Shown here in pieces: positions 2,288-62,879 of a DNA stretch of 64,000 bases; positions within the stretch are counted from its first letter, which is position 1, and every line of letters begins with the position of its first letter. The notes under the pieces are model-generated. The model was given only the letters and a program-made list of their open reading frames with translations. It searched no databases and was not told the DNA's origin. Source of the stretch: SAR202 cluster bacterium AC-409-J13_OGT_754m (lineage in GTDB: Bacteria > Chloroflexota > Dehalococcoidia > Lucifugimonadales > GCA-2712585); the NCBI GenBank assembly GCA_009391235.1, contig VEXD01000001.1, positions 18,809 to 82,808 on the forward strand, in the 5' to 3' direction. The position numbers and the translations under genes are program-made.

Positions 2288-3319
2288 TTATGATTTAACT
2301 AAGCGAGCCGGCACTACTGCCAATCCTTTTACTTGTCGCATAGGGTCTGGATCAGTATTGGATTCCACTTCTACCATCAATTGGCCAAAAAGGAAAGTAC
2401 TAGATATTATGCCCCTCTGAATACCTTCTCTAAACCTAGCTTGTCCGCGAACCGTCGCCCCAGCCAATTGAACTTCCACATCATCTCCCTCCACGATTCT
2501 GAGCATCTCTGCGTCTTTGTAATGAATCTCTATTATTTCTTGTCTATCTATACGATTATTCTTCCCTCTAATAACGTTGACTTCCCGGTCGGGCTGCAGT
2601 AATACCCGCCCAGGTACGAAGATAAAGTTATAATCTGAGGAATCCAAAATGCTAATCCGCTGGAAGTTGGATGCAATTATCTTAAACCGTTGATTTGGAG
2701 ATCCTTCTGAATACAAAATTGGACTATCCTTAGCAGAATCACTAGTGCAAGGCCAGTGTAGGCCATTATAGATCTTATCAGAATACAACATCTGAGTTGG
2801 CATTGGACCTGAAAAGTCTGGAGTGAAAATTAGACGCCCTTCTTTCTCTAACCTAGAGTATGACACCCCTCCATAAATCGACATTAACTGTGACATTTCT
2901 TGCATAATTTCATCAGGTGACTCAAAGTCAAATCCATAAGCTCCCATTGTCCTTGCAATCTCCGAAATTGCCCACCCTTCAGATTTCGCATGGGTATTAT
3001 TGGGGCTAATTGCTGGCCGCAAAACCTGAATCCTTCGTTCAATATTTGTATAAGTCCCTAATTTCTCGCTGAACGCTAATCTCGGTAAGATCACATCTGC
3101 CTTCTCTGCTAACGGCGTCATGAACATATCTTGCACTACCAAGAATTCCAGAGAGTCCAAGGCTTTCATAGGATCATCCAAGTCATCATTAATCGAATTA
3201 GCATTGTCTCCAACGATATACATTGCTTTAACAGATTGAGATGAGTCAGAACTTAATAGTTCCACTAATCCCAGTCCTTTCTCAGAAGGTACAGCACTAC
3301 CCCATTCCTTTGACACCAA
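2288..3319 (-). CDS. FdsA/NuoG-like molybdopterin oxidoreductase, C-terminal fragment (downstream of an in-frame TAA)
   Basis: 343 aa from TTG 3319. Same reading frame as 3398-5110. Between TAA 3400-3398 and this start lie 26 sense codons (QGAWDVGCVPHLLPGYIEISDSHGRD). Contains the C-terminal molybdopterin-dinucleotide-binding barrel (IHYKDAEMLRIVEGDDVEVQLAGATVRGQARF). Confidence 0.75.
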   Translation of the reverse strand: MVSKEWGSAVPSEKGLGLVELLSSDSSQSVKAMYIVGDNANSINDDLDDPMKALDSLEFLVVQDMFMTPLAEKADVILPRLAFSEKLGTYTNIERRIQVLRPAISPNNTHAKSEGWAISEIARTMGAYGFDFESPDEIMQEMSQLMSIYGGVSYSRLEKEGRLIFTPDFSGPMPTQMLYSDKIYNGLHWPCTSDSAKDSPILYSEGSPNQRFKIIASNFQRISILDSSDYNFIFVPGRVLLQPDREVNVIRGKNNRIDRQEIIEIHYKDAEMLRIVEGDDVEVQLAGATVRGQARFREGIQRGIISSTFLFGQLMVEVESNTDPDPMRQVKGLAVVPARLVKS

Positions 3320-3397: not shown

Positions 3398-5110
3398 TTA
3401 GTTAGCCCTACGAAGCATAGGATATATTCCGGAGGAAGGTCTACCTAAGTTGCCTGTCAGTAAAGCTAACCCAGCAAGAGAATAAACACATTCTTCTCGA
3501 AGTTCTTTAGGAATTGTATCCAAACCATACACAATTGATGCCAGATCAGATAGTCCATAAATACTAGCAGTGTTCTCAATTAGTTCTAAAGGGACTCCAG
3601 TTTCTTGAATCACATCTTGAAAATCCAAAGCTTCTAGTTTTTTTCGTAATCCTTCAAGTCCATCACAATTATCATTTATCCATTCCCGTCGTTCGAACCC
3701 TTGAATCACAATTTGCTTCATGATTGCAGCTAAAACCAAATTTTCAGTCCCCGGTTTCGGACGTAGCCATACGTCAGCATAACGAGTTAATTCTACCTCT
3801 CTAGGATCTATAACTATCAATTTTGATCCTGACTTAACTGCCTTTTTTATAGGCACACCTATGACATTCTGCTCTTCAGTCAAATTTGTGCTAAAGGCAA
3901 GAATAACTTTAGAACCTTCCAGGTCCCAAATGGGATTGGTCCCAGACCGATAACCCAAGCTAAATCCCAAAGCATCCATTAATTCAGGCTTAGTATTAGC
4001 AGTCTGGTCTATATTATTGGTCTTCATAACCACTCGAGTGAATTTCTGAGCCAAGTAGTTATCTTCGTTAGTTCCATCACCAGCAGTAAGAAAAGCGAAA
4101 TTGTTTTGCTGATATTGTTTGAATGTTTCTGCGATCAAACCGATAGCTTCTTCCCAGCTAGCTTCCTCTAAGTCACCATTTCGCCTAATAAGTGGTTTTG
4201 TTAGTCGTTCTTCACGATTAACAAAATCTAGACCGAATTTCCCTTTAAAACATGCCTGACCCTTATTAACAGGAGAATTAATCTCAGGAACCACTCTAAT
4301 AACCTTGCCAAACCGATTTATTTCAAGGTTCATTTGACACCCCACTGGACACTGAGGACAAATGCTCCGTTCAACTTGTTTGGGTTTTTCCCATTTGTGG
4401 TCACTTTCTACTAATGCTCCGACTGGACAAACATCTAAACAAGCTCCACAAAATTCACAACCTGACTCAAGTAGGGACGTCCCATTCGAAGTCCCTATTA
4501 ATGTCTGACCAGCTCGTTCAATAAACGTTATCGCGTTATCTCCCCTAAGTTCCTCACACGCTCTAACACATCTGCCACAGACAATACAGAGGTTATAGTC
4601 TCGATCGTAAAACGGATCTCCTATCTCTACTTGCAACCCTCGATACTTGTATTCAAGAGGGGATTCCAAATCCATCCCAAGATATCTAACTGTATCTTTC
4701 AATTCACAACGTTCGTTCTTAGGACAAGTAACACAACGATCATTAACTGACACATGTCTTAAACAAATATCGCTAGGCCCACACAAATCAACCCTATGAC
4801 ATGTAAGACAGCCATGTGGGTGTTCCGCTAATAGCATCTCCATAATACCTCGTCTCAATTCATAAATCTGACTGGACGAGTTACTAACTACCATGCCCTC
4901 AGACACTGGTAATGTACAGGATGCAGGGTTACCACGACCCCCTTCAACATTAACAACACACATTCTGCATGCTGCAAATGGTTTCATTCCTTGATGATAA
5001 CAAAGATACGGTATATAAATACCCGCATCTATTGCAGCCTCTAATACAGTTTTACCTACAGTGGTCCTAACTTCAATATCATCAATGTAAATAGTTACTT
5101 CTTTAGCCAT
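3398..5110 (-). CDS. FdsA/NuoG-like Fe-S molybdopterin oxidoreductase (NAD-dependent formate dehydrogenase alpha-like), N-terminal fragment ending at an in-frame TAA
   Basis: 570 aa. Domain order: 2Fe-2S ferredoxin-like domain (CYHQGMKPFAACRMC), HPHGCLTCH cluster, two ferredoxin-type 4Fe-4S motifs (CIVCGRCVRAC, CEFCGACLDVCP), bis-MGD-type 4Fe-4S (CPQCPVGC), then the molybdopterin domain. Stops inside the conserved N-x-QGAxDxG block. Where FdhF/FdsA have NN(V/I)DxCARx(C/U)H, this protein reads NNIDQTANTKP. Confidence 0.8.
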   Translation of the reverse strand: MAKEVTIYIDDIEVRTTVGKTVLEAAIDAGIYIPYLCYHQGMKPFAACRMCVVNVEGGRGNPASCTLPVSEGMVVSNSSSQIYELRRGIMEMLLAEHPHGCLTCHRVDLCGPSDICLRHVSVNDRCVTCPKNERCELKDTVRYLGMDLESPLEYKYRGLQVEIGDPFYDRDYNLCIVCGRCVRACEELRGDNAITFIERAGQTLIGTSNGTSLLESGCEFCGACLDVCPVGALVESDHKWEKPKQVERSICPQCPVGCQMNLEINRFGKVIRVVPEINSPVNKGQACFKGKFGLDFVNREERLTKPLIRRNGDLEEASWEEAIGLIAETFKQYQQNNFAFLTAGDGTNEDNYLAQKFTRVVMKTNNIDQTANTKPELMDALGFSLGYRSGTNPIWDLEGSKVILAFSTNLTEEQNVIGVPIKKAVKSGSKLIVIDPREVELTRYADVWLRPKPGTENLVLAAIMKQIVIQGFERREWINDNCDGLEGLRKKLEALDFQDVIQETGVPLELIENTASIYGLSDLASIVYGLDTIPKELREECVYSLAGLALLTGNLGRPSSGIYPMLRRAN

Positions 5111-7416: not shown

Positions 7417-8736
7417 TTAAGCATAGTCTCCCATAACCATTCTCGCCACCTGACGCCCTAATCTCACACTATAATTGGTCCCTCTGTCCTCAGGATATAT
7501 TTGGGTTGTATTTGCGAGATATAAGTTAGGTATTGGAGTACGTATATCAGGAATTCTATTGGAATAGTTAACTCCTATAATAGGTTGGGCTGCATCCACT
7601 CTATGGTGATGATATTCTTTAACCCAATCTCTACTAAATTCAGGGTTGATACGAGTTAAATAAGGCAAATATTTCTCAAGTAATTCCTCAGGGGACATTA
7701 AATAAAGAGGATCATCCGTAGTAGGGTAATTAGTCAAATAAACTATGTGCTTCCCACCATATAACGATGGATCAATAAAATTAGTATGTTCTATCAGACC
7801 GACAAACGGCACAGATCTGTCAGCAATATTTAGCCAGTATTTTTTGGTTAATGGCCTATCCAATACCAGTATAAGAACTAGAGCAGAAAGATAGGTTACG
7901 CTATCTAGTTTAGCCTTGTACGGTTCTGGCAAAAAGGGAGCAATTTTAGTAAAAACATAAGATGGGGTAGTTGAAATGATAGCGTCGAAAAAGTTTATCC
8001 CATTTGTTCCACTTAAATCTTCATAAGCTAATCCAGTCGCCCTCCCACCTTCCAATGTGATTTTGTTGATAGTAGAGTTAAGATGCACCTGACCACCCAT
8101 ATCACCTATTTTGGACTCTAATCGTTCGAATATTTCGTCAAAACTACCTATCGGATAACCTAATTTTTCTTTATCCCAAATACGCTCTCGAGAGGCAACT
8201 CTCAAGTATATTTTGCCCCAAAGCCAAGTCATGCAAACCTGATCATAGTACTTTCCAAATTTCCCCTTGAGCATCGGTTCCCAAACAACTCTATATGGCT
8301 TACTTCCTACATGTTTCTCCAACCATTCTCGAGCAGTTACTCCTTCCCATTTTTTCCAATTGCTAGATTTTTGCAAATAAAGCGTTACCAAACCAAGTCT
8401 AACTCTATCAAGCAATCCTAAAGGTTTAAAAGATAATAAATCCTTCGGAGATGCAAAGTCCCAAATCTTATCGCCATGAAAAATACCTACCTTTGATTCA
8501 ATCCATTTGAGTTGATGCCCTAATCCTATATCTTGGATTAAACCAATGATATCTTTGTCACTGCGAAAAAGATGATGATATCCTTTTTCCAGCCTACCGC
8601 CCCCGACCTCAAACGTAGAAGCCTGTCCTCCCAAAAAAGGAGATCTTTCAAAAACTTTTACCTTATGGCCCTTTAGTCCCAGCTCATAAGCAGCAGATAA
8701 ACCTAAAGCTCCAGCACCTATAATGCCTATGTTCAT
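7417..8736 (-). CDS. NAD(P)/FAD-dependent oxidoreductase (amine-oxidase/CrtI/HemY-like fold), substrate unknown
   Basis: 439 aa. N-terminal IGIIGAGALGLSAAYEL...KVFER...LGGQ dinucleotide-binding motif. Only 5 bp from the upstream flippase-like gene. Confidence 0.75.
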   Translation of the reverse strand: MNIGIIGAGALGLSAAYELGLKGHKVKVFERSPFLGGQASTFEVGGGRLEKGYHHLFRSDKDIIGLIQDIGLGHQLKWIESKVGIFHGDKIWDFASPKDLLSFKPLGLLDRVRLGLVTLYLQKSSNWKKWEGVTAREWLEKHVGSKPYRVVWEPMLKGKFGKYYDQVCMTWLWGKIYLRVASRERIWDKEKLGYPIGSFDEIFERLESKIGDMGGQVHLNSTINKITLEGGRATGLAYEDLSGTNGINFFDAIISTTPSYVFTKIAPFLPEPYKAKLDSVTYLSALVLILVLDRPLTKKYWLNIADRSVPFVGLIEHTNFIDPSLYGGKHIVYLTNYPTTDDPLYLMSPEELLEKYLPYLTRINPEFSRDWVKEYHHHRVDAAQPIIGVNYSNRIPDIRTPIPNLYLANTTQIYPEDRGTNYSVRLGRQVARMVMGDYA

Positions 8737-8741
8737 TTGGT

Positions 8742-9821
8742 TTAAATCTCCGTAATTTCACAATTTATTCCAGGGTCTTTATCGTTAGAATTAACATCTC
8801 TTTTATTCATAATATTCATCAGTGAAATATTACCATACCACAAATAGATTAGGCCCAATAAGGTCACTGGAACAAGTACAACCAAATGGGTTACGATAAC
8901 GAAAGCACCAGAAAGCCCGCTATTTATTCCCATATAGGAAAGAGTTTGCAAACCCGTTATCTCAAATATTCCAATGGAACCAGGGAGTGCTGGAATTGAG
9001 GTGGTAATGTTAGTAACAGTAGTAAGCAATAAAATTGCAGGAATGAACAATAATATATTATCAAAATGACCTGGCATATCAAAAGCTAAAGACACAACAA
9101 AAAATACACTTGCTTCCAAAACCCATATTAAAAGAGACCACGCAAAAAGTTTAAAATGCTTTGAGGGGGATTTAAGCAGTGCCAGTCCATCTATAAATAA
9201 GTAAATGAATTCTACAGCTTTGTGGCGCATAAATTGAGGAATGATACTTGACACCCTAATTAGAATGCCATTCGGTTTGTTCTTACTCCCAAACAAAATC
9301 AAACATATTAAAGCAATTAAAAACACAAATGCTATAACAATACCCGAAACAAGCAAAGGCAAATTAAATACAAATTCATTTGATTTCAATGCCCCCGCAT
9401 ATACCAAAATAGTAAAACAAACAGCGGCTATCATCACACAAGTAATTGCATCATATGTCCTTTCGATAACGATGGTTGCTAAAGCAGTACTTACTCTAAA
9501 ACTTTCCCTTATTTTCAAGAAATATATTCGGATAATTTCTCCTAATCTTGCAGGAAGTAGGTTGTTAGACATATAACCAACCGTCATTATGGGGAATAAC
9601 TTTCGAGCTCCAATAGGCTTGAACGTTGAAAGTAAGTATGACCATCTCATTGATCGGCAAAACAGAGCAACAAAGTAAATTACCGTAGCAAATACAATAT
9701 ACCGGTATTTAATGCCTTGCAAAGAATCCATCATATTATCGATATCAATGGTTCTCACAAAAAGAGCCAAAAACGCCAGGCTAATCACCAAACCAATCCA
9801 CAAACTTTTACTCATTAACAA
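8742..9821 (-). CDS. Flippase-like polytopic membrane protein (UPF0104 / lysyl-PG-synthase TM-domain family)
   Basis: 359 aa with multiple hydrophobic helices. The NNLLPARLGEIIR segment resembles the conserved lP.r.GE..R motif of this family (recalled, not searched). Confidence 0.6.
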   Translation of the reverse strand: MLMSKSLWIGLVISLAFLALFVRTIDIDNMMDSLQGIKYRYIVFATVIYFVALFCRSMRWSYLLSTFKPIGARKLFPIMTVGYMSNNLLPARLGEIIRIYFLKIRESFRVSTALATIVIERTYDAITCVMIAAVCFTILVYAGALKSNEFVFNLPLLVSGIVIAFVFLIALICLILFGSKNKPNGILIRVSSIIPQFMRHKAVEFIYLFIDGLALLKSPSKHFKLFAWSLLIWVLEASVFFVVSLAFDMPGHFDNILLFIPAILLLTTVTNITTSIPALPGSIGIFEITGLQTLSYMGINSGLSGAFVIVTHLVVLVPVTLLGLIYLWYGNISLMNIMNKRDVNSNDKDPGINCEITEI

Positions 9822-9880
9822 CGCTAATAGCTCCCATACCTATCAGATTTACGCAATTCTAATTGGAAGAGACATCTCAC

Positions 9881-12262
9881 TTATGGCAAGAAAAGAAAGA
9901 ATTTAGAAGTCCACCAGTCACTATCAAGTCTACGATAAATTATATAATCTATACTTTCCAACCATGATTCACGATGAGTCATAATATCAAATAGATACTT
10001 GAAGTCTCTCGTTATTTCATCTCCAAAATTCTCAACTTGCCTTTTTTCTCCCGGTCGCCGATAACTTTCGGGAAACCAAAGAAGATTCTTATATGGACCT
10101 GATTTTTCATGCTGCAATAAATATTGTGAGTTGCGTACGGTATATTGATCAGATAAAAGTACTCCGGAAGTCCCCATATCCTCATTTAAGCCACTACACC
10201 AATCAAGATATCCACTTTCAGTTGATTCCTTGAAACAATGGTATTCCAGAAATTCCTGACCTCTTAAATACCAATTGAAAGGATACCACAACTCATAATC
10301 TACTTTTACTCTTTGTTGGGTATTTTTTAATGTATAATCCGTTATAAGTCTCTCAGTTACTGTTCGCACGTCCTGGCTGGCTCCCGCATAAACAAGCATC
10401 TCTACAGGCCCATCAGGTTCAGAATAAGCAGCTCTAAGACCCGTAAACACAGAAAAGCCAAAAAGCACTACGAAACAACCAAAACAAACAAGCCGAATCC
10501 CTCTGTAGAAACGAATATGGTCTAACATAAAAGCTAAAAGTACTGAGAATCCAAATAGGCAACCCATAAATAGCCAATCCCTTAACTCAGAAGGATAGCC
10601 ACCCATTAGCAATCCTCGTAAAACATAGAATCCACTAATTAGCACTAATACGGTCAAAAAAGGTATTAATAGCCCAATCCCGATATTAGTCTTTTTCCAT
10701 GACATACCACCGACTAGATCGCCCAAAAAAGTTGCAGTCAACACGATAAATGGAATGCTGACATTTACAATTAGCCATGGCATTTTCTCCCCTGCAATAG
10801 AATAAATCGCCAGAGTAGTCAAAGACCAAATGGTGATAAAAATACCTCTAGAATCAAACTTTTTCACGTAATAAAGCATCGCCGCAAACCCAAATAAAAG
10901 GGGCAGGAATTCGTAAACTGAACCCAATACAAAATAGTAATACCAAGGCTGATTACCTCTTACAACCTCATGTTGTGCTATCCAATAACCTAATCCCTGC
11001 CAAAACCCTGTAAACAGACCCCCGAATTTAACGCACGCGAAATCCAAAACATCGTTAGTGATATCTGGGCATGAATCATATGGTCGTGCCATGATGCCAA
11101 ACAAACCACTGTAAAACATTACCCATATCGTATAAAAAATCCCCGCGCAAATGAGCCAAGTTTTTCTTCCCACAATCATCCCGAGTTTCACGGACAATCC
11201 GACTGATAAAAATAATAATCCAAAAGCCACCAAATAATTCAAAGGTATTTGGATGTCACCGAACAATAGAACTACATATATCAAGGCTAATAATATCGAT
11301 GCTAAGGAGGCAATTACCCTATATCTAACAAATTTCGAGGATGCTATCAGCCACCAAATTCCCACAGGTACTATCATGATTAAAAGCATTATTGCATTTA
11401 CCAATATTGGTAACGTGATACTACGAATACTTATAGTTGGTTCTGCCCATAGAGGTAATCCCACTGGTCCGTTGGCCTCACCCCCTTGATAAGCCAATAT
11501 CAATCCAATGGGCAACAATTCCTGTAATATGGAAACACTAGCTATCCATTGAGGTAATGTTAAAGTCATTATTAAAACAAACAAAATCGTAGGGCCACTG
11601 AATTCAGAGACCCTTATGCGTCCGAGAATATAAGGAATTATTTCAGTCATTGAAACCAAAAATAATGGTATTAGTAACACTATTACCATTATGTAAGATG
11701 TTTCTTTAGTAACAAATGCTAAAGCTAGTACACCGGCAATAAGGTAAAGATAAAGATCTTTCCTCTCATTAATATATCTCCAAATCAAAACGAAGAAAGC
11801 CATGGAAAAAACAGCCATCAAAATATCATTGCGTGCATATCTACTGAAATAAAGTAAAGACGGGGAAAACATAAACATCAATGACATAGCCAATGTAGCG
11901 ATGCGGCCAAAATAATTGCGGAGAAAGTAAGGAAGACCAACAAGTAGTGATCCAAACAATGGATAGATTAATCTAGCTGTAAAATCATTGTCGGATAATA
12001 ATCTAAAAACTGAAGCATTTAAAAAGAATTGTAATGGCCCATGAATCCAAGGTTCATAATGATATCCTTGTCCATCAAAAATCTTCCAACTATAGTAAGC
12101 ATGTAGGCTTTCGTCATAATGAAAAGGACGGACTTCCAAGTCCCACAATCTTATAAACAAAGATGCAATCATCAATCCGCCAAAAAGCACTATATCCCAA
12201 CGAGAACTAATGCAGGATAATAACGCTATTCGAGCCCTACACTTTTCCCGCAAAATGTGCAC
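9881..12262 (-). CDS. TIGR03663-like GT-C membrane protein (PMT/ArnT-like putative glycosyltransferase)
   Basis: The track ORF extends to 12358. GTG 12262-12260 is preceded by GGAGG 7 nt upstream and lies 13 nt after the upstream stop, so it is the likelier start. FHYDESLHAYYSW...WIHGPLQFF contains the DE dipeptide and HGP tripeptide described as invariant in TIGR03663. Highly hydrophobic, about 793 aa. Confidence 0.7.
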   Translation of the reverse strand: MHILREKCRARIALLSCISSRWDIVLFGGLMIASLFIRLWDLEVRPFHYDESLHAYYSWKIFDGQGYHYEPWIHGPLQFFLNASVFRLLSDNDFTARLIYPLFGSLLVGLPYFLRNYFGRIATLAMSLMFMFSPSLLYFSRYARNDILMAVFSMAFFVLIWRYINERKDLYLYLIAGVLALAFVTKETSYIMVIVLLIPLFLVSMTEIIPYILGRIRVSEFSGPTILFVLIMTLTLPQWIASVSILQELLPIGLILAYQGGEANGPVGLPLWAEPTISIRSITLPILVNAIMLLIMIVPVGIWWLIASSKFVRYRVIASLASILLALIYVVLLFGDIQIPLNYLVAFGLLFLSVGLSVKLGMIVGRKTWLICAGIFYTIWVMFYSGLFGIMARPYDSCPDITNDVLDFACVKFGGLFTGFWQGLGYWIAQHEVVRGNQPWYYYFVLGSVYEFLPLLFGFAAMLYYVKKFDSRGIFITIWSLTTLAIYSIAGEKMPWLIVNVSIPFIVLTATFLGDLVGGMSWKKTNIGIGLLIPFLTVLVLISGFYVLRGLLMGGYPSELRDWLFMGCLFGFSVLLAFMLDHIRFYRGIRLVCFGCFVVLFGFSVFTGLRAAYSEPDGPVEMLVYAGASQDVRTVTERLITDYTLKNTQQRVKVDYELWYPFNWYLRGQEFLEYHCFKESTESGYLDWCSGLNEDMGTSGVLLSDQYTVRNSQYLLQHEKSGPYKNLLWFPESYRRPGEKRQVENFGDEITRDFKYLFDIMTHRESWLESIDYIIYRRLDSDWWTSKFFLFLP

Positions 12263-12275
12263 TAAATAACCTCCA

Positions 12276-14651
12276 TTAGCTTGCACCGAGTGTTGTTTCA
12301 TAAACAGTAACGTTACCATTTTCAAATACAATACGCATGAATTCAGTAAAGCCCTCAAAGCCTATTCGACCATATTTCTCCCGTTCTCTAGGACCTAGAT
12401 AAACGTATTTAATCTGATATTTGTCCAATAATTTCTCTACTAATGTAGGGTCTTCGCTCTGATATATAGTCCCAATATCGACTTCTCTATGAACGAAATC
12501 AAAATCGGAACCCCTCCATTGAATCTGGTGACCTGGCCAATTCAAAGGTGAAGCCAAACCCGTGCTAGAAGCTATGCGCCCGTAGGCCGTATAATCATCT
12601 CCCACAGCTTCCAACAATCGCCCATGTGGAAACTCGTCTCTAATTTTAACAATACTCTCATATTCACCTATGACGTTATCACGAGTAAAAGCCAAACCAT
12701 CCAAGGTTGATGGTTTATCCAAACTATATACACGGTCCAACGATGCACCAACAGGATAATATAAGCAGACCATTAATAAAAAACTTACCAATCCAACTAA
12801 CATAGAGTTTCCAACAATGAACTGCCTCCTATTTGAAGAAGGTAATGAAAACCAATAGTACACACCAAAGGCCGATCCGAATGCCAAGAGGACCCATGCT
12901 TGGTAATAAAGTTTAAAAACGGTATTCATCCTCAATGGAAATAAATCCTGAACATAAAAGAATTCGACACCCATCAACAGATATAGGCCTAAACAAATCA
13001 TAGATAGAATGAAGATCATGGCTTTTGGAACTTCTTTGGGAATTGATATCACAATGTACATCGATAAAGCTATCAAAAATGCTAATGGTAAAATAATACT
13101 GATTCTAGACAGCGATATTGGGAACCCACCACTAAATGAGAATGAGGCCATAGTACCATCAACGCTACTTTGGATTAGAGGAACTAACCAAGATAGAACT
13201 ATCCAAAGAACAAACGGAGTTAGGGTAACTCCTAACACCAAACCCATAATTTTTCTATTAACCTGTTTTTGCCAAAGTGCAACACAACTTATTCTAATTA
13301 TAAGTGCGCTAGTAATAAGCAGAAATAAACCCCAAATTAAAATAAATGCGAATGGCCTTGTATTAGCTGTAGTCAATAAACTTAACCCCGATACTTGAGT
13401 TGTTAAATTCGCATGATACGGTAGGAACAATATTATCCCGAATATGATTAATGGCATACCAAAAACAACGGTTGCCCATACTCCCTGACTAAACCTACGG
13501 TCATTATCCAATAACCCCTTAATAAAAATTATCCCTAGTAACAGAGTAGAGAAAGTTGGAAAATCCCACATGTTTATAAAAGCGAGGGCGCCGAGTGATA
13601 GAGAGATCATAAGAGAACCTATAGGATCAATAATCAGGTATTTAAAACCTACCTTATCTGAAGAAATAAACATATTGAACATGATCGCTATGCTAAAAAT
13701 GACGAATGGCAAAGCCAACACATGAGCATGCAGATCACCCAACAAAAAACTAAAAAATGGAAATTCTGTGATTGTATAATCAATGCCTTGTCCATTCTCA
13801 AAAGTATTTATTACCCTTGTTGAACGCCACCACCACATGTGATCCCCTGGGAAAAATGTTGCATCACCTCCTAGAGGAGAGGATAAACCATCAATTGCAA
13901 TCCATTCCCACAAGTTGGATGAACCCAATCTGAGGGCATTAATAAATTCTAGCCCTCCTACTAGTGTGCCGATAAATCCAATAAAGAGAGGAGCAAATAA
14001 TGCATACGTAATGGCTGTTCGGATTGTTGCACCAGTACTGCGAACTAAATTGTACATTAGTCCATAAGCAGCCAAAGCCACTAATGCAGGAATCAAAGCA
14101 ACGGCTAAATTATAGGTAAAATTTGAAGGTATTCCTGACAGCATGGTCAATATAGCGATAATCAAATGCCCAAAGTAGTAATAACTGATTGAATGTCCAG
14201 CTAACCACATATCATTTGGAGGAAAATTTGGGCTTTTGATTATCGCGTTGATAAAACCAAAATCCATAGGTTTTTCGGTATGATTAATAGCAGGTACTTG
14301 TGATACCAATCCTATCCAAATAAAAAACACGATTAAGAAAACAGCTTCAGCAGTTAATAAATGTTTTCGTTGATGTATTAGAAGATTGGAAATTCCTTTT
14401 ACGTTAAATTTCAGGACCAATCCCGAAACCAGGGATATGAGCAAAACCAACCCTATAACGCTGTAAACTGAGTTTGGAAATAAACCAAGTGTATTCAAAA
14501 TCCAGTAGAAGTAGCATATTAATAACAAGGATACTATTTTAGAAAATACAATGCCTCTATCTGGTAAATTCTTGAATATAACATAAGTTATAGGTATAGC
14601 TATAAAACCTAGAACTTCTACAATCAGTAACCAAAGAATAACGTTAGCCAC
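12276..14651 (-). CDS. Chlor_Arch_YYY (TIGR03662 / DUF2298-like) polytopic membrane protein
   Basis: 791 aa and strongly hydrophobic. SISYYYFGH contains the YYYxG motif (YYY codons at 14183-14175). GTG start with GGAG 6 nt upstream. Confidence 0.7.
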   Translation of the reverse strand: MANVILWLLIVEVLGFIAIPITYVIFKNLPDRGIVFSKIVSLLLICYFYWILNTLGLFPNSVYSVIGLVLLISLVSGLVLKFNVKGISNLLIHQRKHLLTAEAVFLIVFFIWIGLVSQVPAINHTEKPMDFGFINAIIKSPNFPPNDMWLAGHSISYYYFGHLIIAILTMLSGIPSNFTYNLAVALIPALVALAAYGLMYNLVRSTGATIRTAITYALFAPLFIGFIGTLVGGLEFINALRLGSSNLWEWIAIDGLSSPLGGDATFFPGDHMWWWRSTRVINTFENGQGIDYTITEFPFFSFLLGDLHAHVLALPFVIFSIAIMFNMFISSDKVGFKYLIIDPIGSLMISLSLGALAFINMWDFPTFSTLLLGIIFIKGLLDNDRRFSQGVWATVVFGMPLIIFGIILFLPYHANLTTQVSGLSLLTTANTRPFAFILIWGLFLLITSALIIRISCVALWQKQVNRKIMGLVLGVTLTPFVLWIVLSWLVPLIQSSVDGTMASFSFSGGFPISLSRISIILPLAFLIALSMYIVISIPKEVPKAMIFILSMICLGLYLLMGVEFFYVQDLFPLRMNTVFKLYYQAWVLLAFGSAFGVYYWFSLPSSNRRQFIVGNSMLVGLVSFLLMVCLYYPVGASLDRVYSLDKPSTLDGLAFTRDNVIGEYESIVKIRDEFPHGRLLEAVGDDYTAYGRIASSTGLASPLNWPGHQIQWRGSDFDFVHREVDIGTIYQSEDPTLVEKLLDKYQIKYVYLGPREREKYGRIGFEGFTEFMRIVFENGNVTVYETTLGAS

Positions 14652-14682: not shown

Positions 14683-15642
14683 TTAGTAGCTTGAAGCAAA
14701 CATTGCTTCTACCAATTGCTCTGCTGAAAACAAGGCCATATCCTGAACCTGTTCACCAGTCCCAATATAATGAATAGGAAGTTCAAGTTCCTTCTTTATA
14801 GCCAATACAACCCCACCTTTCGCAGTTCCGTCTAGCTTAGACAAAAATATCCTATTGCAACCAACAAAACTGCTAAATGTTTTAGCCTGAGCAAGACCAT
14901 TATATCCAGTAGTAGCATCCAACACTAATAGAATTTCATGTGGTGCCCGTGAATCCAAACCAGTCATTACTTGTCTAATTTTCTTAACTTCTTCCATAAG
15001 ATTAGTTTTATTATGCAAACGTCCAGCTGTATCGACGATTAACACATCACTATTTCTTGCCTTAGCTGCCTTAAAAGCATCAAAAGCAACTGCTCCGGGA
15101 TCAGCTCCATAAGACTGTGCAATAACGTCCACTCCCACACGTTCGCCCCAAATTTGCAGTTGGTCTATTGCTCCAGCCCTAAAGGTGTCACCAGCCGCAA
15201 GCATTACTCTGTTGCCCATCTGTTTGTAATAGTGAGCTAATTTCCCTACAGTTGTAGTCTTCCCTACCCCATTCACTCCAACAACCAAAATTACATGTGG
15301 AATAAGATCTGATTTCCCCCAATCACCACTGTATTGAATATCAGATCCTGTATCCATTATTGTAATCATAAGTGTTTTAAGCAATTCCAGTATTTTATCG
15401 GGATCAGTCACCTGTTGAAGTTTTATTTTTTGTCTTAAGTCTTCGAGTATCTCAATTGAAGTATTCACACCTACGTCGCTGGATATTAGGATTTCCTCTA
15501 GTTCTTCCCACATAAGGTCGTCATTCATGCCACCTTTTAAAATATTCCGAACTCTTCCAAACCATGTAGCATGACTTTTTTTTACCGCTTGCTTAATTTT
15601 GAGGACATTAGAGTCCTTATTTCTAATCGATATTCTAAACAT
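14683..15642 (-). CDS. ftsY: Signal recognition particle receptor FtsY
   Basis: 319 aa. GVNGVGKTTTVGKLA (P-loop), DTAGR, and an SRP-GTPase NG-domain layout. Confidence 0.95.
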   Translation of the reverse strand: MFRISIRNKDSNVLKIKQAVKKSHATWFGRVRNILKGGMNDDLMWEELEEILISSDVGVNTSIEILEDLRQKIKLQQVTDPDKILELLKTLMITIMDTGSDIQYSGDWGKSDLIPHVILVVGVNGVGKTTTVGKLAHYYKQMGNRVMLAAGDTFRAGAIDQLQIWGERVGVDVIAQSYGADPGAVAFDAFKAAKARNSDVLIVDTAGRLHNKTNLMEEVKKIRQVMTGLDSRAPHEILLVLDATTGYNGLAQAKTFSSFVGCNRIFLSKLDGTAKGGVVLAIKKELELPIHYIGTGEQVQDMALFSAEQLVEAMFASSY

Positions 15643-15647
15643 TACTA

Positions 15648-16352
15648 TTAATCTTCCTCTCGATTAAAATCCACCAGAGATTCAATGGCTGCATTGGCTG
15701 CGGTTTGTTCGGCATCTAATTTCCTTTTCCCATTTCCTTCTCCTAAAACCATACCATCAACCAACACCTCTACGAAGAATACACGCTCATGTGACGGACC
15801 AGATTCCCCTGTGACTCTATAGCTTGGTGTTTTGCCCCACTTTGACTGTGCCATTCCTTGTAACTCTGACTTAGCATCTACAGAGACTCCATATTTATCT
15901 ATCCTGTCCAATTCATCTTTCAGCATATCAAGTATAAATTTTGTAGTTACACATGATCCCTGATCTATATATATGGCGCCCACTAACGCTTCAAAGCCAG
16001 CGGCCAAATTGGACGGCCTATCCCTTCCTTGGTTAGAGTCTTCTCCTCTACCCATAGAGAAATATTCCCCCAATTGCAATCGATATGCAATTCGCGCCAA
16101 AGCCTCTTCTCGTACTAGATCCGCGCGAATTCGAGTTAGGTCACCCTCAGACATATCAGGATATCTTTTAAATATTTCCAGAGATACTACAGAGCCCAGT
16201 ATAGCGTCTCCCAAAAATTCCAATCTCTGATAAGAACCACCAATAGGAGTTGAAGATTCGTTAAGATAAGACGGATGAGTTAGTGCTTCTATCAAAAACT
16301 CAGGGTTTTTAAATTTTAACCCTATCTTTAGTTGGAATTCTTCCGCTTTCAA
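15648..16352 (-). CDS. rnc: Ribonuclease III
   Basis: 234 aa. ERLEFLGDA signature and a C-terminal dsRBD (GPSHERVFFVEV...GEGNGKRKLDAEQTAA). TTG start. Confidence 0.95.
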   Translation of the reverse strand: MKAEEFQLKIGLKFKNPEFLIEALTHPSYLNESSTPIGGSYQRLEFLGDAILGSVVSLEIFKRYPDMSEGDLTRIRADLVREEALARIAYRLQLGEYFSMGRGEDSNQGRDRPSNLAAGFEALVGAIYIDQGSCVTTKFILDMLKDELDRIDKYGVSVDAKSELQGMAQSKWGKTPSYRVTGESGPSHERVFFVEVLVDGMVLGEGNGKRKLDAEQTAANAAIESLVDFNREED

Positions 16353-16374
16353 AGGTTTTTATCCGATCTAAAAA

Positions 16375-17004
16375 TCAATCAGTCAGAACTGCTGGCCATG
16401 GTGGCTGTGGGCGTTTGATCTCTCCAACATTAAACCATCTAAGCATTAATCTAGTAATATCTTCGTATAGTTCAACAGACTCATCAGGAGAAGGCTTAAA
16501 CATCTTAAGAAAGAATGTGGACCCTCCATTTCCTACAAATGTAGGCACACCAAAAACACCAAATCGTTGCGTTGCTGTCATGTGACTATCGGCTATTTCT
16601 TGGATTATCTTAGGGTTTTTCATGTCTTCTTGCAGAAGTCCAACATCTAGACCTGCACCTTTAGCAGTACTTAATATCACAGTCAAATCGGTGAGATCTT
16701 TGCGATCCTCGTGGCGTGCTTTTACCAACCCCAAATGAAAGTCACTAAATACGGCTTCACCCTGTCGCATCGCTGCCATACCCGCTATTAATGCTAATAT
16801 GCCACGGTTGTTCTTACCTGGAGGTTGGTCCCAGGCTTTCCAGCCTTCTGCCTCTTTATTATTCGCCTGTGCTAAGACAAAAGGTTTCCATTCTATATTA
16901 GGTTTTTGCCCACTTTGGTCTTCAACCTGACGCAACCACACTGTCACGTTATATACAAAAGGTCAAGTATAGTCGAAGTATATTCTTAATTTTCCATCTA
17001 ACAT
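16375..17004 (-). CDS. DsbA-fold thiol/selenol reductase, Rv2466c-like, with an in-frame TGA (16965-16963) at the active-site Cys position; candidate selenoprotein (alternatively a nonsense-disrupted gene)
   Basis: The track ORF starts at GTG 16947. The same frame upstream reads ATG(17004-17002) LDGKLRIYFDYT TGA PFVYN, joining VTVWLRQVE. AAGGAG lies 6 nt upstream of that ATG. The C-terminal part (FGVFGVPTFV..., LRWFNVGEIKRPQPPWP) fits the DsbA-like family. Confidence 0.6.
16923..16951 (-). promoter_or_regulatory. Candidate bacterial SECIS-like hairpin downstream of the in-frame TGA
   Basis: Minus-strand RNA UAACGUGAC-AGUGUGGUUGC-GUCAGGUUG. It forms a 9-position stem (7 Watson-Crick pairs, 1 G-U, 1 G-G mismatch) with an 11-nt G/U-rich loop, starting 11 nt after the UGA. 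Found by eye, not folded computationally. Confidence 0.35.
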
Positions 17005-17124
17005 AGGGTGCTCCTTATGATACGAAATTGTAGCCACTCAAAGGGGTAAAAGTCAAAAATGCGCTAAGAAAGCACCCACCATATCTTCTAATTGCAAACA
17101 AGGCATGCATGCTATAATCAGCCT

Positions 17125-30074: not shown

Positions 30075-30782
30075 TTAAATAGGAAACGTTACTTTTCTAA
30101 ATTCCTCTGCATATTTAAATCCACATTTTAGTCCAATCTCTCTATTCCAATTTCTAAGCCAGTCTGTAGAATCAGATTCTGAGAGGCCCGAAATCTGACT
30201 GCTGTGACAAATTAACGCTTGAATTTTAAGATCGATACTCTCAGTTATATCAAAGTAAGTATCAGCATCAACTTCTTCGGCTCCCCAAAATAGCAAGGTT
30301 TTAACTTTGTGTGGTTCAAACCCTTCTTGCTCATGTTCAGCAAAATGCAATCTGTCACGAGCATAGGGGAAAACCGCATCTTGTGCGACTATACCAGCAA
30401 TACGGTGATCTCTATGGAAATAGAAAGTTCTTCTGTAGGGGTCAGGAGCAAAAACGACCTCAGGTCTGAAGGACCGTATTACCCGAACTAGTTGTCCTCT
30501 AAATTCACGACTATCTTCCAATTCACCATCTGGATGGCCTAATTGAAATACTGTCTCTACCCCTAGAGTCTTGGCCGCTAAAACCTGTTCCTTGTAGCGA
30601 ATATCCTCGAGATCGGCTGTAGTCATAGATGGGTCATCAGTACCCTTATTACCATTGGTGCATAAAACGTATGCGATCTCAGTTCCATTCTGTGCCCATT
30701 TAGCAATAGTACCTCCACAAGCTATTTCCCCGTCATCTGGATGAGGTATTACTACCAAGGCCCTGCTAGGAATTTCTTGCAT
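30075..30782 (-). CDS. PIG-L/LmbE-family N-acetylglucosaminyl deacetylase (MshB/BshB-like)
   Basis: 235 aa. VIPHPDDGEIACGGTIA (zinc site), HRDH, CHSSQ. Confidence 0.85.
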   Translation of the reverse strand: MQEIPSRALVVIPHPDDGEIACGGTIAKWAQNGTEIAYVLCTNGNKGTDDPSMTTADLEDIRYKEQVLAAKTLGVETVFQLGHPDGELEDSREFRGQLVRVIRSFRPEVVFAPDPYRRTFYFHRDHRIAGIVAQDAVFPYARDRLHFAEHEQEGFEPHKVKTLLFWGAEEVDADTYFDITESIDLKIQALICHSSQISGLSESDSTDWLRNWNREIGLKCGFKYAEEFRKVTFPI

Positions 30783-30956
30783 CGATATCCTCCATAATAT
30801 AGGGTTGTTGAAGGTTTTTCACTCTGCTACAATCCGGGCTGCGTGTCAAGTTATACATATCCAAAACTCGATGATTGAACGAAGCCTAGGCCGCAAAATC
30901 TAAACCGTTTTCCAATAAATACCCTAAAATGATTAAAAATCGGCCAATCTATTAAG

Positions 30957-31883
30957 TTGCAATATTCAGTGAAGAGATCAGGGCTTTCAATAAGAACTTT
31001 CCAGTGGGATGATATCAGAGCATTCGTTAGCTTGGATCGTTCTATCCGATTATCTAAAGGTGAAATTGCCCCTACAAACCCGGAAATAATTACGGAAATC
31101 CTGGGACAACCTCAGATAAATCCTGAAAAGAATTGTTTCGTCTTAGAGATAAATCATGAAGTAGTCGGCTATGGGATTCTTCACCATGAATCACCGATAA
31201 ATAGATGTGTGTTAGAGCTTAAAGTCCATCCAAAATATGCCAATACCGGAGCCGAACAGAAACTGATAGAGAACGCCATTTTTGAATCCAAAATCCTTCA
31301 TGCTAAAGTATTACATTTACAGACAGGCAAGACTGGGTACCTGACCTCCCTTTTAAAAAGGATGGGTTTCAGTCCAATCCGTAAATATTGGCTCATGCAG
31401 TGGAAATCCACAAAGTTGCAAGAGCACTATCCACCAGATGGTTTTTTCTTCAGACATTTATCAGAAAGCAAAGATATTGATTCATTGACACTCCTTCAAA
31501 ATAAAGCCTTCGATGGAAGTTGGGGGTTTTCTCCAAACACCAGAGAAGAAATTCAATACAGAACCAGAATGAGCAACACCAAACCCGGTGGAATAATTTT
31601 TATGTGCTCTGAACAAGACGTATGCGGGTATTGCTGGACTTTTATAATTAATAATGGGAAATCATGGACTGGAACAATAGCCATGATAGGCATAGATCCG
31701 AATCATCGTAGCAAAGGTCTTGGTAAGCCTCTTTTGTTAGAGGGATTAAAGTTTCTGCATTCCAGAGGAGTAAAATATGTAGAGCTAGAAGTAGACTCTC
31801 AAAACCAACCAGCTATACGTCTATATAGTTCTTTAGGATTTAAAACAATTGCCGAACGTCATTGGTTTGAGATTAGTTTTTAG
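30957..31883 (+). CDS. Tandem double-GNAT N-acetyltransferase (MshD/mycothiol-synthase-like architecture)
   Basis: 308 aa comprising two acetyltransferase folds. The C-terminal domain has an acetyl-CoA site (HRSKGLGKPLL) and ends VELEVDSQNQPAIRLYSSLGF. Start uncertain (TTG 30957 or GTG 30969; no clear SD). Confidence 0.75.
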   Translation: MQYSVKRSGLSIRTFQWDDIRAFVSLDRSIRLSKGEIAPTNPEIITEILGQPQINPEKNCFVLEINHEVVGYGILHHESPINRCVLELKVHPKYANTGAEQKLIENAIFESKILHAKVLHLQTGKTGYLTSLLKRMGFSPIRKYWLMQWKSTKLQEHYPPDGFFFRHLSESKDIDSLTLLQNKAFDGSWGFSPNTREEIQYRTRMSNTKPGGIIFMCSEQDVCGYCWTFIINNGKSWTGTIAMIGIDPNHRSKGLGKPLLLEGLKFLHSRGVKYVELEVDSQNQPAIRLYSSLGFKTIAERHWFEISF

Positions 31884-32520
31884 AACTCCACTTTTTATCA
31901 ATCGTAAACTCAAGGATCTTGGACGGGGTTAATACCCCTCCTGATATTACCATTTTCATAGCATCATCCACTGTTAAATCTGTGAACGTCACATCCGCTT
32001 TCGGAACCAGTGCAAGAAAGCCGGAAGTAGGCACAGGAGATGTAGGTATATAAACTGTTACCATGTCATTATCCATGGTGTCACTATATTGAGATGTCAT
32101 AAATCCTACAGATTTTACACCCACCTTAGGGAATTCTAATAGCACTACGCGAGTAAAATCCTCACCGAATTTTGCGACACTTAAAGATTCAATAGTGTTT
32201 CTAGCGACCTTATATATAGAACGTACAAAAGGTATGAAATCAACTAATCGATTACCAAAGTTTATGATATTTCTACCTATGACATGACGAGCCACTAAAC
32301 CAGAAAAATAAAGAATTACGATAAAACTAAAGATACCAATTCCTGGTATCCATGTACCAAAAACGGTATTTATAATTTCCCGTAGTGGTTCATCAATAAG
32401 GTCAAATAAAAACTTTAGAACTAAATAAGTAGTGCCCAAAGGCAAGATTATTAGTAAGCCTGCTAAAAATCTGCCTTTAAAATGATTGCCTAATCTAACA
32501 AACAATTTATGCATAAACAA
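31873..32520 (-). CDS. DUF502-family membrane protein
   Basis: 215 aa. Two N-terminal TM helices, IPGIG, FIPFVRSIYKVARN and VLLEFPKVG segments typical of DUF502/COG2928 (recalled). Confidence 0.7.
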   Translation of the reverse strand: MFMHKLFVRLGNHFKGRFLAGLLIILPLGTTYLVLKFLFDLIDEPLREIINTVFGTWIPGIGIFSFIVILYFSGLVARHVIGRNIINFGNRLVDFIPFVRSIYKVARNTIESLSVAKFGEDFTRVVLLEFPKVGVKSVGFMTSQYSDTMDNDMVTVYIPTSPVPTSGFLALVPKADVTFTDLTVDDAMKMVISGGVLTPSKILEFTIDKKWSSKN

Positions 32521-32529
32521 AATCTTGAG

Positions 32530-33744
32530 TTACCTAGAATTAAGCCCTGCTAATGACTGATAAAGAGACCATATTTTTATTGCAACCTTATCCCAACCCA
32601 TAGTACTAGCTCTCTCTACAGCGGCCTCACTCATACTCTTTCGAAGACTTCCATTAGAAAAGACCATGGAAATAGTATCGATAAATCTCTCTGGGCATCT
32701 CCAAGGAAGCAGATATCCAGTTTGACCATGTCTAATTACCGTGGGCAGACCTCCAACTCTGGAAGCAACTACAGGAGTTCCGCATGCCATAGATTCTAAG
32801 GCTACCAAACCAAAACTTTCATAATAAGAAGGTATTACGCAAATATCTGCAGCGGCAAAATATTCAGGAAGTTTTGTTTGTTCTACTCTACCAACAAATG
32901 TGACTATATCCGATAATCCCATTCTATTTGAAAGCAATATGAGTCTATTTACTTCCTCCTCTTGAACAGCATCTCCTCCGACTATCAAAACCTTGTATTT
33001 ATAACATACGTCCATTGAGGCAGCTACATCCAGTAACAATTCGACTCCTTTCAGAGGCTCAATTCGTCCTACATACAACATAATCTTATCACCATTAAGA
33101 CCTAAATGGTTTCTTGCTGTCACCATATCCAAAGGTCTAAATTTAGAAAGATCTACTCCACAAGGAATCGCTGTAATTCGATCACGGCTAGCACCATACA
33201 ACTGAACCATCATTTCAAGTTCATGAACACTTGATGCAATAATAGTGTCTGCTGCACTCATAATATATCTTTCCGAATCAGTACGTACCTGTGATTCCCC
33301 CTCTCCAATCCTGGCTCTTCGTTTCAATTCAGAAAGAGTATGAAATGTAACTAAATGGGGAACGCTCCATATTTCACTTAAATAATTCCCCACCAAACCA
33401 GAAAGCCAATAATGTGAATGAATTAACAAATATTCAGTCTTCTCGGCTATTTGAAATCTAACAATATTTCCACCAAATTCAGACGTGAACTGATAAAGGT
33501 CCCCTATCTCATGAGTCAGAGGACCTCCATCCAAGTGGACAACTCTGACTTTATCACTGACCCATTCGATATCTTGACATGATCCCAAATGCCGTCTGGC
33601 AAAAATATCTACTTGTAAACCCAAAACTCCAAGCTGTCGTGATAACTCTTTTACGTATACGTTCATTCCACCTGTTTTGCCAGATCCGGGAGTCTGAATC
33701 GGGCACGTATGAAATGTAACCATAGATATCCGGTAATCTTTCAT
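32530..33744 (-). CDS. GT4 glycosyltransferase, MshA-like (D-inositol-3-phosphate GlcNAc-transferase-like)
   Basis: 404 aa. ISMVTFHTCPIQTPGSGKTGGMNVYV, LIHSHYWLSGLVG, VGRIEPLKG and AADICVIPSYYESFGLVALESMACGTPVVASRVGGLP match, block for block, my recollection of actinobacterial MshA. Confidence 0.75.
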   Translation of the reverse strand: MKDYRISMVTFHTCPIQTPGSGKTGGMNVYVKELSRQLGVLGLQVDIFARRHLGSCQDIEWVSDKVRVVHLDGGPLTHEIGDLYQFTSEFGGNIVRFQIAEKTEYLLIHSHYWLSGLVGNYLSEIWSVPHLVTFHTLSELKRRARIGEGESQVRTDSERYIMSAADTIIASSVHELEMMVQLYGASRDRITAIPCGVDLSKFRPLDMVTARNHLGLNGDKIMLYVGRIEPLKGVELLLDVAASMDVCYKYKVLIVGGDAVQEEEVNRLILLSNRMGLSDIVTFVGRVEQTKLPEYFAAADICVIPSYYESFGLVALESMACGTPVVASRVGGLPTVIRHGQTGYLLPWRCPERFIDTISMVFSNGSLRKSMSEAAVERASTMGWDKVAIKIWSLYQSLAGLNSR

Positions 33745-62866: not shown

Positions 62867-62879
62867 TCCTCAGCCTCCG

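Follow-up and report, generated by a model that had tools for sequence, protein, structure and literature searches.

In the dark ocean, SAR202 and other Dehalococcoidia rank, to our knowledge, with the most abundant bacteria, and next to nothing is known of their envelope chemistry. We analyzed a stretch of 64,000 nucleotides from SAR202 cluster bacterium AC-409-J13_OGT_754m (assembly GCA_009391235.1, contig VEXD01000001.1, positions 18,809 to 82,808 of the forward strand), referred to here as the window. On its minus strand, between positions 7417 and 14651, lie four genes for predicted envelope- or lipid-related proteins: a Chlor_Arch_YYY (DUF2298) protein (the YYY protein), a TIGR03663 protein of the Agl23 family (the Agl23-like protein), a UPF0104 flippase-like protein, and a PRK07233-type flavin adenine dinucleotide (FAD) oxidoreductase (the flavoenzyme). 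The cluster pairs the DUF2298/YYY family, for which we found no experimental characterization, with a bacterial protein related to archaeal Agl23.

The four open reading frames (ORFs) occupy positions 14651..12276, 12358..9881, 9821..8742, and 8736..7417. An initial annotation, made from the DNA letters without database searches, had described four co-directional genes separated by 5, 59, and 13 bp, and this layout is borne out: 13 bp separate the YYY and Agl23-like genes, 59 bp the Agl23-like and flippase-like genes, and 5 bp the flippase-like and flavoenzyme genes. The first of these gaps depends on the start codon of the TIGR03663 gene, whose frame is open to position 12358 and in that form overlaps the YYY gene (TAA stop, 12278-12276) by 83 nt. 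A GTG at 12262-12260, with a GGAGG ribosome-binding site 7 nt 5' of it (12270..12274), yields a product of 793 aa and converts the overlap into the 13-bp spacing. In the public annotation, the product instead begins at an ATG within the upstream gene and has 812 aa, which leaves 40 residues before a conserved tryptophan; the GTG leaves 21, and the median among homologues is 25 (n = 42). We prefer the GTG because it fits the homologue N termini better, in agreement with the initial annotation, which had proposed the GTG/GGAGG start as the one that removes the overlap. The GTG start of the YYY gene at 14651 is strongly supported by its homologues as well, since exactly 29 residues precede Pro30 in 38 of the 42 that were aligned. 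For the flippase-like gene, the start is a TTG at 9821 with GGGAG at 9835-9831. In the public genome record, one gene product already bears the name TIGR03663 family protein, and the YYY gene is listed as hypothetical.

The YYY protein (791 aa; 12276..14651, minus strand) scores 487 bits against TIGR03662 (cut-off, 300) over residues 3-786 and 369 bits against PF10060, the DUF2298 model (cut-off, 27.8). Translation places the family's signature, SISYYYFGH, at residues 154-162, with the three tyrosines Y157-Y159 encoded at 14175..14183 (minus strand). A YYYxG motif, strong hydrophobicity, and a length of 791 aa, within the range of 700-900 aa that is characteristic of the family, are thus found together. 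In an alignment of 43 sequences, Y157, Y158, G161, and H162 are invariant, and the conserved motifs of the family are HTEKPMD, YYYxGH, WWWR, and DLHAH. The first of these (14262..14282, minus strand) lies in an acidic loop after transmembrane helix 4 that reads HTEKPMD...PPNDMW...YYYxGH; T125, E126, and M129 are invariant, H124, K127, P128, and D130 are conserved in at least 90% of the sequences, and D147 is a further acidic residue in the same loop. Short loops rich in lysine and arginine alternate around it, and this alternation, taken with the modeled secondary structure, suggests that the loop is extracytoplasmic and makes it a candidate catalytic or donor-binding site.

The Agl23-like protein (793 aa; 9881..12262, minus strand) scores 238 bits against TIGR03663 (cut-off, 126), in two stretches, and 38.7 bits against PMT_2; for comparison, the annotated Halogeometricum Agl23 scores 319 bits against TIGR03663. 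The sequences FHYDESLH and WIHGPLQFF are both present, and residues H48, Y49, D50, E51, H54, W72, H74, G75, and P76 are invariant in a 43-sequence alignment. The HYDE motif formed by H48-E51 (12110..12121, minus strand) lies 8 residues after transmembrane helix 1. The N terminus ahead of that helix carries five lysine or arginine residues, and the distribution of these residues, together with the modeled secondary structure, would put the HYDE motif on the non-cytoplasmic side of the membrane.

The third protein (359 aa; 8742..9821, minus strand) is a stand-alone UPF0104/PplT/MprF-transmembrane-type flippase-like protein and a candidate donor translocator. It scores 167 bits against PF03706 (model positions 2-302 of 302) and 96 bits against TIGR00374 (model positions 1-316 of 323); a search of PDB sequences with it returned nothing useful. 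The fourth (439 aa; 7417..8736, minus strand) belongs to the amine oxidase/phytoene desaturase (PDS)/protoporphyrinogen oxidase (PPOX) superfamily and is a candidate donor editor. It scores 489 bits against the NF005560/PRK07233 equivalog (cut-off, 252; residues 1-435) and 109 bits against Amino_oxidase. NF005560 is annotated merely as "hypothetical protein," and the next-best NCBIfam model is HpnE. The N terminus (GIIGAGALG) contains a GxGxxG dinucleotide-binding motif at G7-G12 (8701..8718, minus strand; MNIGIIGAGALG), whose glycines G7, G9, and G12 hardly vary; G36 and G37 do not vary at all. When the family profile was compared with solved structures, the best match was plant phytoene desaturase (5mog, E = 4e-21, full length); protoporphyrinogen oxidases came next and, more weakly, UDP-galactopyranose mutase.

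These scores, all far above the curated cut-offs, uphold the four family assignments of the initial annotation, which had recognized TIGR03662/DUF2298 by SISYYYFGH (codons 14183-14175), TIGR03663 by the FHYDESLH...WIHGPLQFF motifs, a UPF0104/MprF-flippase-like protein, and a flavoprotein of CrtI/HemY fold. Its statement that neither large-protein family has an assigned function holds for DUF2298, for which a literature search found passing mentions only and no experimental characterization; it does not hold for TIGR03663, the Agl23 family, which NCBIfam names "flippase activity-associated protein Agl23."

AlphaFold2 models of the two large proteins, each built from a 43-sequence alignment, have a predicted local distance difference test score (pLDDT) of 82 and a predicted TM-score (pTM) of 0.89 for YYY and values of 83 and 0.86 for the Agl23-like protein. 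Both are confident models of a GT-C fold, as the initial annotation had expected for its two proteins of about 790 aa. In the YYY model, about 14 transmembrane helices are followed by a C-terminal alpha/beta domain of approximately 150 aa. Every significant Foldseek match in the PDB, for either model, is a GT-C glycosyltransferase (probability, 1.00; TM-scores normalized to target length, about 0.3-0.55). For the Agl23-like protein the matches are ArnT (5ezm, 3e-7), STT3, AglB, PglB, Pmt1/2/4, and ALG9/12; for YYY they are STT3 (6s7t_A, 2e-6), DPY19 (7zlh), AglB (7e9s), PglB, and AftA. Sequence searches of the PDB gave nothing useful for the former and no match for the latter, including none to an oligosaccharyltransferase in the PDB, and a profile-profile comparison of the YYY and TIGR03663 families gave no signal. 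Judged by these models, the kinship of the two families is visible at the level of the fold only. Each protein carries acidic residues near its N terminus, D50/E51 after helix 1 in the Agl23-like protein and E126/D130/D147 after helix 4 in YYY, and most of them are invariant.

Because STT3, AglB, and PglB are among the best structural matches of YYY, and because its C-terminal domain matches the C-terminal globular domain of AglB (3vu0; Foldseek probability, 1.0; TM-score, 0.49), YYY could be a divergent oligosaccharyltransferase that moves a preassembled glycan en bloc to proteins. We consider this improbable. TM-scores of the model against oligosaccharyltransferases are modest (0.3-0.4), the monosaccharide transferases DPY19 and AftA score similarly, and the WWDxG motif (sought as WWD or WW[DE]xG) occurs in 0 of 43 sequences of the YYY family. 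On the last ground, a canonical oligosaccharyltransferase is ruled out.

The other large protein raises the question of whether Agl23 proteins are flippases or transferases. In Haloarcula hispanica, Agl23 has been described as a putative hexose-phosphate-dolichol flippase needed for N- and O-glycosylation, and the purified protein (HhAgl23) translocated M5GN2-PP-lipid in proteoliposomes and rescued a yeast rft1 deletion (Chen et al. 2024, PMC11182771). Against an annotated haloarchaeal Agl23, a BLASTP alignment of the window protein covers residues 29-188 only (160 aa, 33% identity, E = 7e-22); YDE, HGP, SRxxRxD, and TKE are conserved between the two, and there is no full-length collinearity (793 versus 645 aa, with C-terminal halves that do not align). 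A genetic study of Agl23 in Haloarcula hispanica was reportedly also published by Lu and colleagues in Mol Microbiol in 2020.

Archaeal loci available for comparison were few: a plasmid collection supplied one YYY and one Agl23 locus, and a metagenome scan supplied two Agl23 loci. The four-gene arrangement is present in none of the sampled archaeal loci. The 10 kb around each of the three haloarchaeal Agl23 genes contain no gene for a YYY protein, a flippase-like protein, or the flavoenzyme, and the YYY copy on a Halarchaeum plasmid has an uninformative gene context. A GtrA-family gene is found beside Agl23 in two of the three loci. The Halogeometricum Agl23 gene (L084:8944-11315) overlaps its GtrA-family neighbor by 4 bp, and at a second locus (L088) a GtrA gene lies within about 1 kb.

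One reading of these data is that the Agl23-like protein of the SAR202 cluster is itself a flippase or scramblase, that YYY is the sole transferase, and that the UPF0104 protein serves another lipid. The NCBIfam name and the proteoliposome and rft1 results speak for it, as the window protein passes the cut-off of that family. On balance we find it rather unlikely, because the fold is that of the ArnT/STT3/PMT transferases and unlike any known flippase, and the motifs YDE, HGP, SRxxRxD, and TKE, of the kind seen at GT-C active sites, do not vary and also occur in haloarchaeal Agl23. A transferase dependent on dolichol-phosphate-hexose predicts a mutant phenotype identical to that of a flippase, the similarity to the haloarchaeal protein is limited to the N-terminal 160 aa, and the cluster already contains a flippase-like protein. 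The GtrA-family gene that adjoins haloarchaeal Agl23 is likewise hard to reconcile with Agl23 as the flippase. The GT-C fold thus makes the role of Agl23, as flippase or transferase, questionable.

To place the cluster in its wider context, we drew on a scan of one genome per species that yielded at least 589 YYY relatives, from which the best 80 loci were used. All 80 are from Dehalococcoidia, SAR202, or Chloroflexota, with YYY identities of 38-83%, and they were compared with the window proteins by tblastn. In every locus with enough sequence (69 of 69), the Agl23-like gene comes immediately after the YYY gene, and in 52 of 67 loci the flippase-like and flavoenzyme genes come next in the same orientation; the expectation that the four genes would be co-localized in related genomes was therefore confirmed. 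In the other 15 of 67 loci, the flippase-like and flavoenzyme genes are both absent within 10 kb, as at one locus (L012) where a nuclease gene and the ATP synthase operon come after the GT-C pair. This pattern indicates that the cluster consists of two separable modules. In homologue searches with both GT-C proteins, the best 120-150 matches listed were all from Dehalococcoidia. Elsewhere, a table for an unrelated Chloroflexi genome has DUF2298, PMT_2, and Rossmann-fold proteins side by side (PMC8756737), and a Pseudobutyrivibrio plasmid carries a DUF2298 gene within a surface-polysaccharide cluster.

Upstream of the YYY gene, ftsY (which adjoins it across a 31-bp gap), rnc, and a gene for a DsbA-like protein (DSBA match) occupy 14683..16947 on the same strand, with gaps of 31, 5, and 22 bp. 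The transcription unit may exceed four genes, since these three are co-directional and packed as tightly. The top promoter-like site on the minus strand, a consensus match only, lies at 17056..17027, upstream of the DsbA-like gene. A scan of the cluster for promoters and terminators found no internal signal above the background of shuffled sequence. Across the 80 loci, the DsbA-like gene, rnc, and ftsY are as syntenic as the four genes, and all three probably stand outside any glycosylation function. From this synteny and the lack of internal signals one could argue that the four genes share no function and simply sit in a vertically inherited housekeeping block that runs from the DsbA-like gene, rnc, and ftsY onward. 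We give that explanation very little credence: gaps of only 5 and 13 bp are suggestive of coupling, all four products are related to the envelope or to lipids, and both the link of the flavoenzyme to flippase-like proteins, seen independently in fusions, and the link to GT-C-like proteins recur outside the class, as described below.

An exhaustive search with the flavoenzyme returned 5,973 cluster representatives, of which 1,157 matched at E <= 1e-30; some of these are multidomain proteins. Pfam assignments show an LPG_synthase_TM domain fused to the flavoenzyme in one cluster (P0270) and the same flippase-like–flavoenzyme fusion in six more (P0391-P0396). GtrA is fused to the flavoenzyme in P0309 and P0332, and P0327 combines GtrA, the flavoenzyme, and two GT2 domains. 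P0338 is also among the flavoenzyme fusion proteins, and one architecture joins the flavoenzyme to a methyltransferase. A literature search found no description of flavoenzyme fusions with LPG_synthase_TM, with GtrA, with GtrA and two GT2 domains, or with a methyltransferase.

Gene neighborhoods in unrelated lineages repeat the theme. At three loci (L092, L093, and L096), a GT2 gene (about 340 aa) is followed by flippase-like and flavoenzyme genes and then by between one and three genes for polytopic proteins, each of 520-565 aa. At L097, an AglD-like GT2–flippase fusion precedes the flavoenzyme and a protein of 493 aa that matches PMT_2 below the threshold. A GT2 gene followed by a gene for the flippase-like–flavoenzyme fusion is found at L091 and on the P0396 contig, the fusion followed by a polytopic protein at L095 and L090, and four large membrane proteins without a Pfam match flanking the flavoenzyme at L098. 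Overlaps of 4 bp between neighboring genes are frequent in these GT2/flippase-like/flavoenzyme/polytopic loci, and the polytopic proteins that close this recurrent order have 490-680 aa. The large polytopic neighbors (490-920 aa; L092:8401-10038, L093:8371-13244, L096:7386-9038, L095:4902-6548, and L098:1-9432) have eight or nine transmembrane helices in their first 370 or so residues, an acidic motif after helix 1, and a soluble domain at the C terminus; by sequence, they form at least three unrelated families. A lenient Pfam scan of the large flavoenzyme neighbors gave one sub-threshold PMT_2 match and no other family match, and profile comparison of the GT-C families with a flavoenzyme-adjacent protein gave no signal. 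By their architecture, they are probably undescribed GT-C-like families.

The flavoenzyme also appears in other settings. On plasmids of Burkholderia stagnalis and Agrobacterium salinitolerans (L085 and L086), a flavoenzyme of the same NCBIfam equivalog (510 bits) is encoded within the order methyltransferase, UbiA/DPPR-synthase-like, DprE1-like, DprE2-like, short-chain dehydrogenase/reductase (SDR), PRK07233 flavoenzyme, and GtrA. Scores of the DprE1-like and DprE2-like proteins fall below the NCBIfam equivalog cut-offs, the UbiA-like gene resembles that for decaprenyl-phosphate phosphoribosyltransferase, and the cluster as a whole looks like a decaprenyl-phosphoryl-arabinose synthesis set. 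In Embleya, a DegT aminotransferase, a GT2, and the flavoenzyme are encoded in that order.

These fusions and the GT2, GtrA, and DprE1-DprE2-UbiA-like neighborhoods tie the flippase-like/flavoenzyme pair to lipid-linked sugars. They also bear on the idea that the pair is a module for making and flipping a modified glycerolipid or isoprenoid lipid, in the manner of MprF, GpgSDF, or HexSDF or of phytoene-desaturase-type enzymes that act on lipids, independent of the GT-C genes. That idea has several points in its favor. UPF0104 proteins flip lysyl-phosphatidylglycerol and are linked to glucosaminyl-phosphatidylglycerol synthesis; the closest solved relatives of the flavoenzyme (PDS, 5mog, and PPOX) act on hydrophobic isoprenoid or tetrapyrrole substrates, with HpnE as the next model; and the pair is missing from the 15 loci that retain the GT-C pair. 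We nonetheless find it doubtful, because in unrelated phyla a GT2 gene is followed by the pair or its fusion and then by GT-C-like polytopic proteins, often with overlapping codons, and because the flavoenzyme is fused or adjacent to GtrA and lies within DprE1/DprE2/UbiA-like clusters, all of which are polyprenyl-phosphate-sugar contexts.

Taken together, the families, folds, and gene contexts point to the SAR202 cluster as the membrane-side half of an extracytoplasmic glycosylation system that uses a lipid-carried sugar, most likely on polyprenyl phosphate, a reading to which we assign a probability of roughly 55%. A synthase encoded elsewhere in the genome would charge the lipid with a sugar at the cytoplasmic face. 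On that same side, the flavoenzyme, working with the flippase-like protein, would then edit the lipid-linked donor, by DprE1-like oxidation of the sugar or by redox chemistry on the isoprenoid chain, and the flippase-like protein would move the donor to the outer leaflet. There the YYY and Agl23-like GT-C enzymes, possibly acting as a pair, would transfer the sugar to envelope acceptors, for example glycans, glycolipids, or proteins of the surface. In this scheme, the identity of the donor lipid, the reaction of the flavoenzyme, the way in which the donor is flipped, the acceptors, and any complex between the proteins are features that we infer.

Several observations weigh against this reading. 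No GT2 or UbiA donor synthase was found in the window among ORFs of 110 aa or more. The flippase-like and flavoenzyme genes are missing from the 15 loci noted above, and, as ftsY and rnc are equally syntenic, synteny within the class is by itself no proof of functional coupling; the gene adjacency in Dehalococcoidia could in part reflect vertical inheritance. YYY and Agl23 are not neighbors in the four haloarchaeal loci (three with Agl23, one with YYY), and the polytopic neighbors in other phyla are GT-C-like by architecture only. UPF0104 flippase-like proteins also serve glycerolipid pathways, as with MprF and GpgF (PMC12713373), so the lipid flipped in the SAR202 cluster need not be polyprenyl phosphate. 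The initial annotation had suggested a single system for flipping lipid-linked sugars and transferring them outside the cytoplasm; its general sense is sustained by family, fold, and context, whereas its picture of one unit gives way to two modules, and the synthase was not found among those ORFs of the window.

We further entertain, tentatively, the more specific proposal that the PRK07233 flavoenzyme is an unrecognized fourth component of extracytoplasmic glycosylation systems, one that is anchored to the membrane by a flippase-like or GtrA partner, in some cases within one fused polypeptide, and edits the donor before flipping. In SAR202, the edited donor would feed an obligate pair of YYY and Agl23-like enzymes that builds an envelope glycoconjugate. 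For the chemistry of the flavoenzyme, the DprE1 precedent and the DegT neighbors favor sugar oxidation. Its affinities to PDS and HpnE favor chemistry on the polyprenyl chain, as does the archaeal dolichol alpha-saturase, for which a gene apparently is still lacking, to judge from PMC10821996. With chain redox, there may be a dolichol-like, alpha-saturated carrier in bacteria that have archaeal-type GT-C enzymes. The flavoenzyme fusions and neighborhoods in several phyla point to an undescribed donor-editing step in lipid-linked glycosylation, an idea that is open to test in culturable Proteobacteria or Actinobacteria.

Other parts of the window contain further genes of possible interest. At 61141-63977 (minus strand), genes for a myo-inositol-1-phosphate synthase, a GT4 glycosyltransferase, and a CDP-alcohol phosphatidyltransferase stand in a row, which we take to correspond to the phosphatidylinositol and phosphatidylinositol-mannoside synthesis set of Actinobacteria; a phosphatidylinositol-anchored glycolipid would be a plausible acceptor for the YYY and Agl23-like GT-C enzymes. 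The region 30075-34721 encodes a PIG-L deacetylase (30782..30075), a two-domain GNAT protein (30957..31883), a DUF502 protein, a GT4 glycosyltransferase (33744..32530), and a FemAB-like GNAT protein (34721..33741). This set presumably resembles the MshA/MshB/MshD (mycothiol) or BshA/BshB glucosamine-conjugate pathway, and we assume a likeness to the GT4/deacetylase/flippase logic of gpgSDF as well. A molybdopterin oxidoreductase gene resembling NuoG and formate dehydrogenase is split by an in-frame TAA at 3398-3400 (minus strand) into ORFs 5110..3398 and 3319..2288. The context of the stop is MLRRAN*QGAWDVGCVP, and four relatives have Ser or Glu at that position (GANSQGAWD or GANEQGAWD). A selenocysteine codon was rejected; the TAA is a single-base nonsense change, the mark of a pseudogene, or a single-cell assembly error. 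An Rfam scan of positions 1-64000 found no family at gathering score.

Compared with known systems, YYY is like STT3, AglB, and PglB in having a polytopic GT-C core and a C-terminal extracytoplasmic domain, and these are its best structural matches; it differs from them in lacking WWDxG and any detectable sequence similarity. The Agl23-like protein passes the same NCBIfam model as Haloarcula Agl23 and shares with it the PMT_2 core and the YDE, HGP, SRxxRxD, and TKE motifs. Unlike the haloarchaeal proteins, it is bacterial, has 793 rather than about 645 aa, and carries a different C-terminal transmembrane region and soluble domain; its gene is paired with YYY, whereas haloarchaeal Agl23 stands alone or beside GtrA. 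The flippase-like protein shares the PF03706 fold with MprF, GpgSDF, and HexSDF, and the order of synthase, headgroup-editing enzyme, and flippase is similar. Those systems differ in that their substrates are glycerolipids, they have no GT-C enzyme, and their editor is a deacetylase or an aminoacyl transferase and not a flavoprotein.

Archaeal UPF0104 proteins have been predicted to be glycosylation flippases, and their genes neighbor those of PMT/STT3-like and AglD-like proteins, according to the sections of Makarova, Galperin, and Koonin (2015, PMC5898192) that bear on this comparison. The SAR202 cluster resembles these AglD/arCOG00899 neighborhoods in its combination of UPF0104 with a PMT/STT3-like enzyme, and L097 even has an AglD-type GT2-UPF0104 fusion. 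It departs from them in its GT-C partners, DUF2298 and TIGR03663, and in its flavoenzyme, which is not mentioned in those sections.

The closest framework is that of the three-component glycosylation systems, in which a synthase for polyprenyl-phosphate sugars is joined by a flippase and a GT-C transferase (PMC11127046). As in GtrA/GtrB/Gtr*, the mycobacterial decaprenyl-phosphoryl-arabinose pathway (Rv3789-DprE1/E2-Emb/Aft), and Citrobacter ORF12-15 (GT136), a candidate flippase and GT-C enzymes that would be expected to use a lipid-monophosphate sugar donor are encoded together in the SAR202 cluster. Redox editing has precedents there in DprE1/DprE2 and in the SDR epimerase ORF13, and homologues of the flavoenzyme sit in such clusters. 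The SAR202 cluster differs in having no synthase and two different GT-C genes in tandem, in a flippase candidate that is a UPF0104/MprF-type protein and not a GtrA, SMR, or MATE protein, and in an auxiliary enzyme of the amine oxidase/PDS fold rather than the VAO fold of DprE1 or an SDR. The best reading of the SAR202 cluster is therefore as a variant of the synthase–flippase–GT-C systems with a tandem GT-C pair, a UPF0104 flippase candidate, and an extra flavoenzyme of PDS/PPOX fold. Its component families are known and their arrangement is a new version of a familiar kind of system, and the coupling of the flavoenzyme to flippase-like and GtrA domains is the most testable lead.

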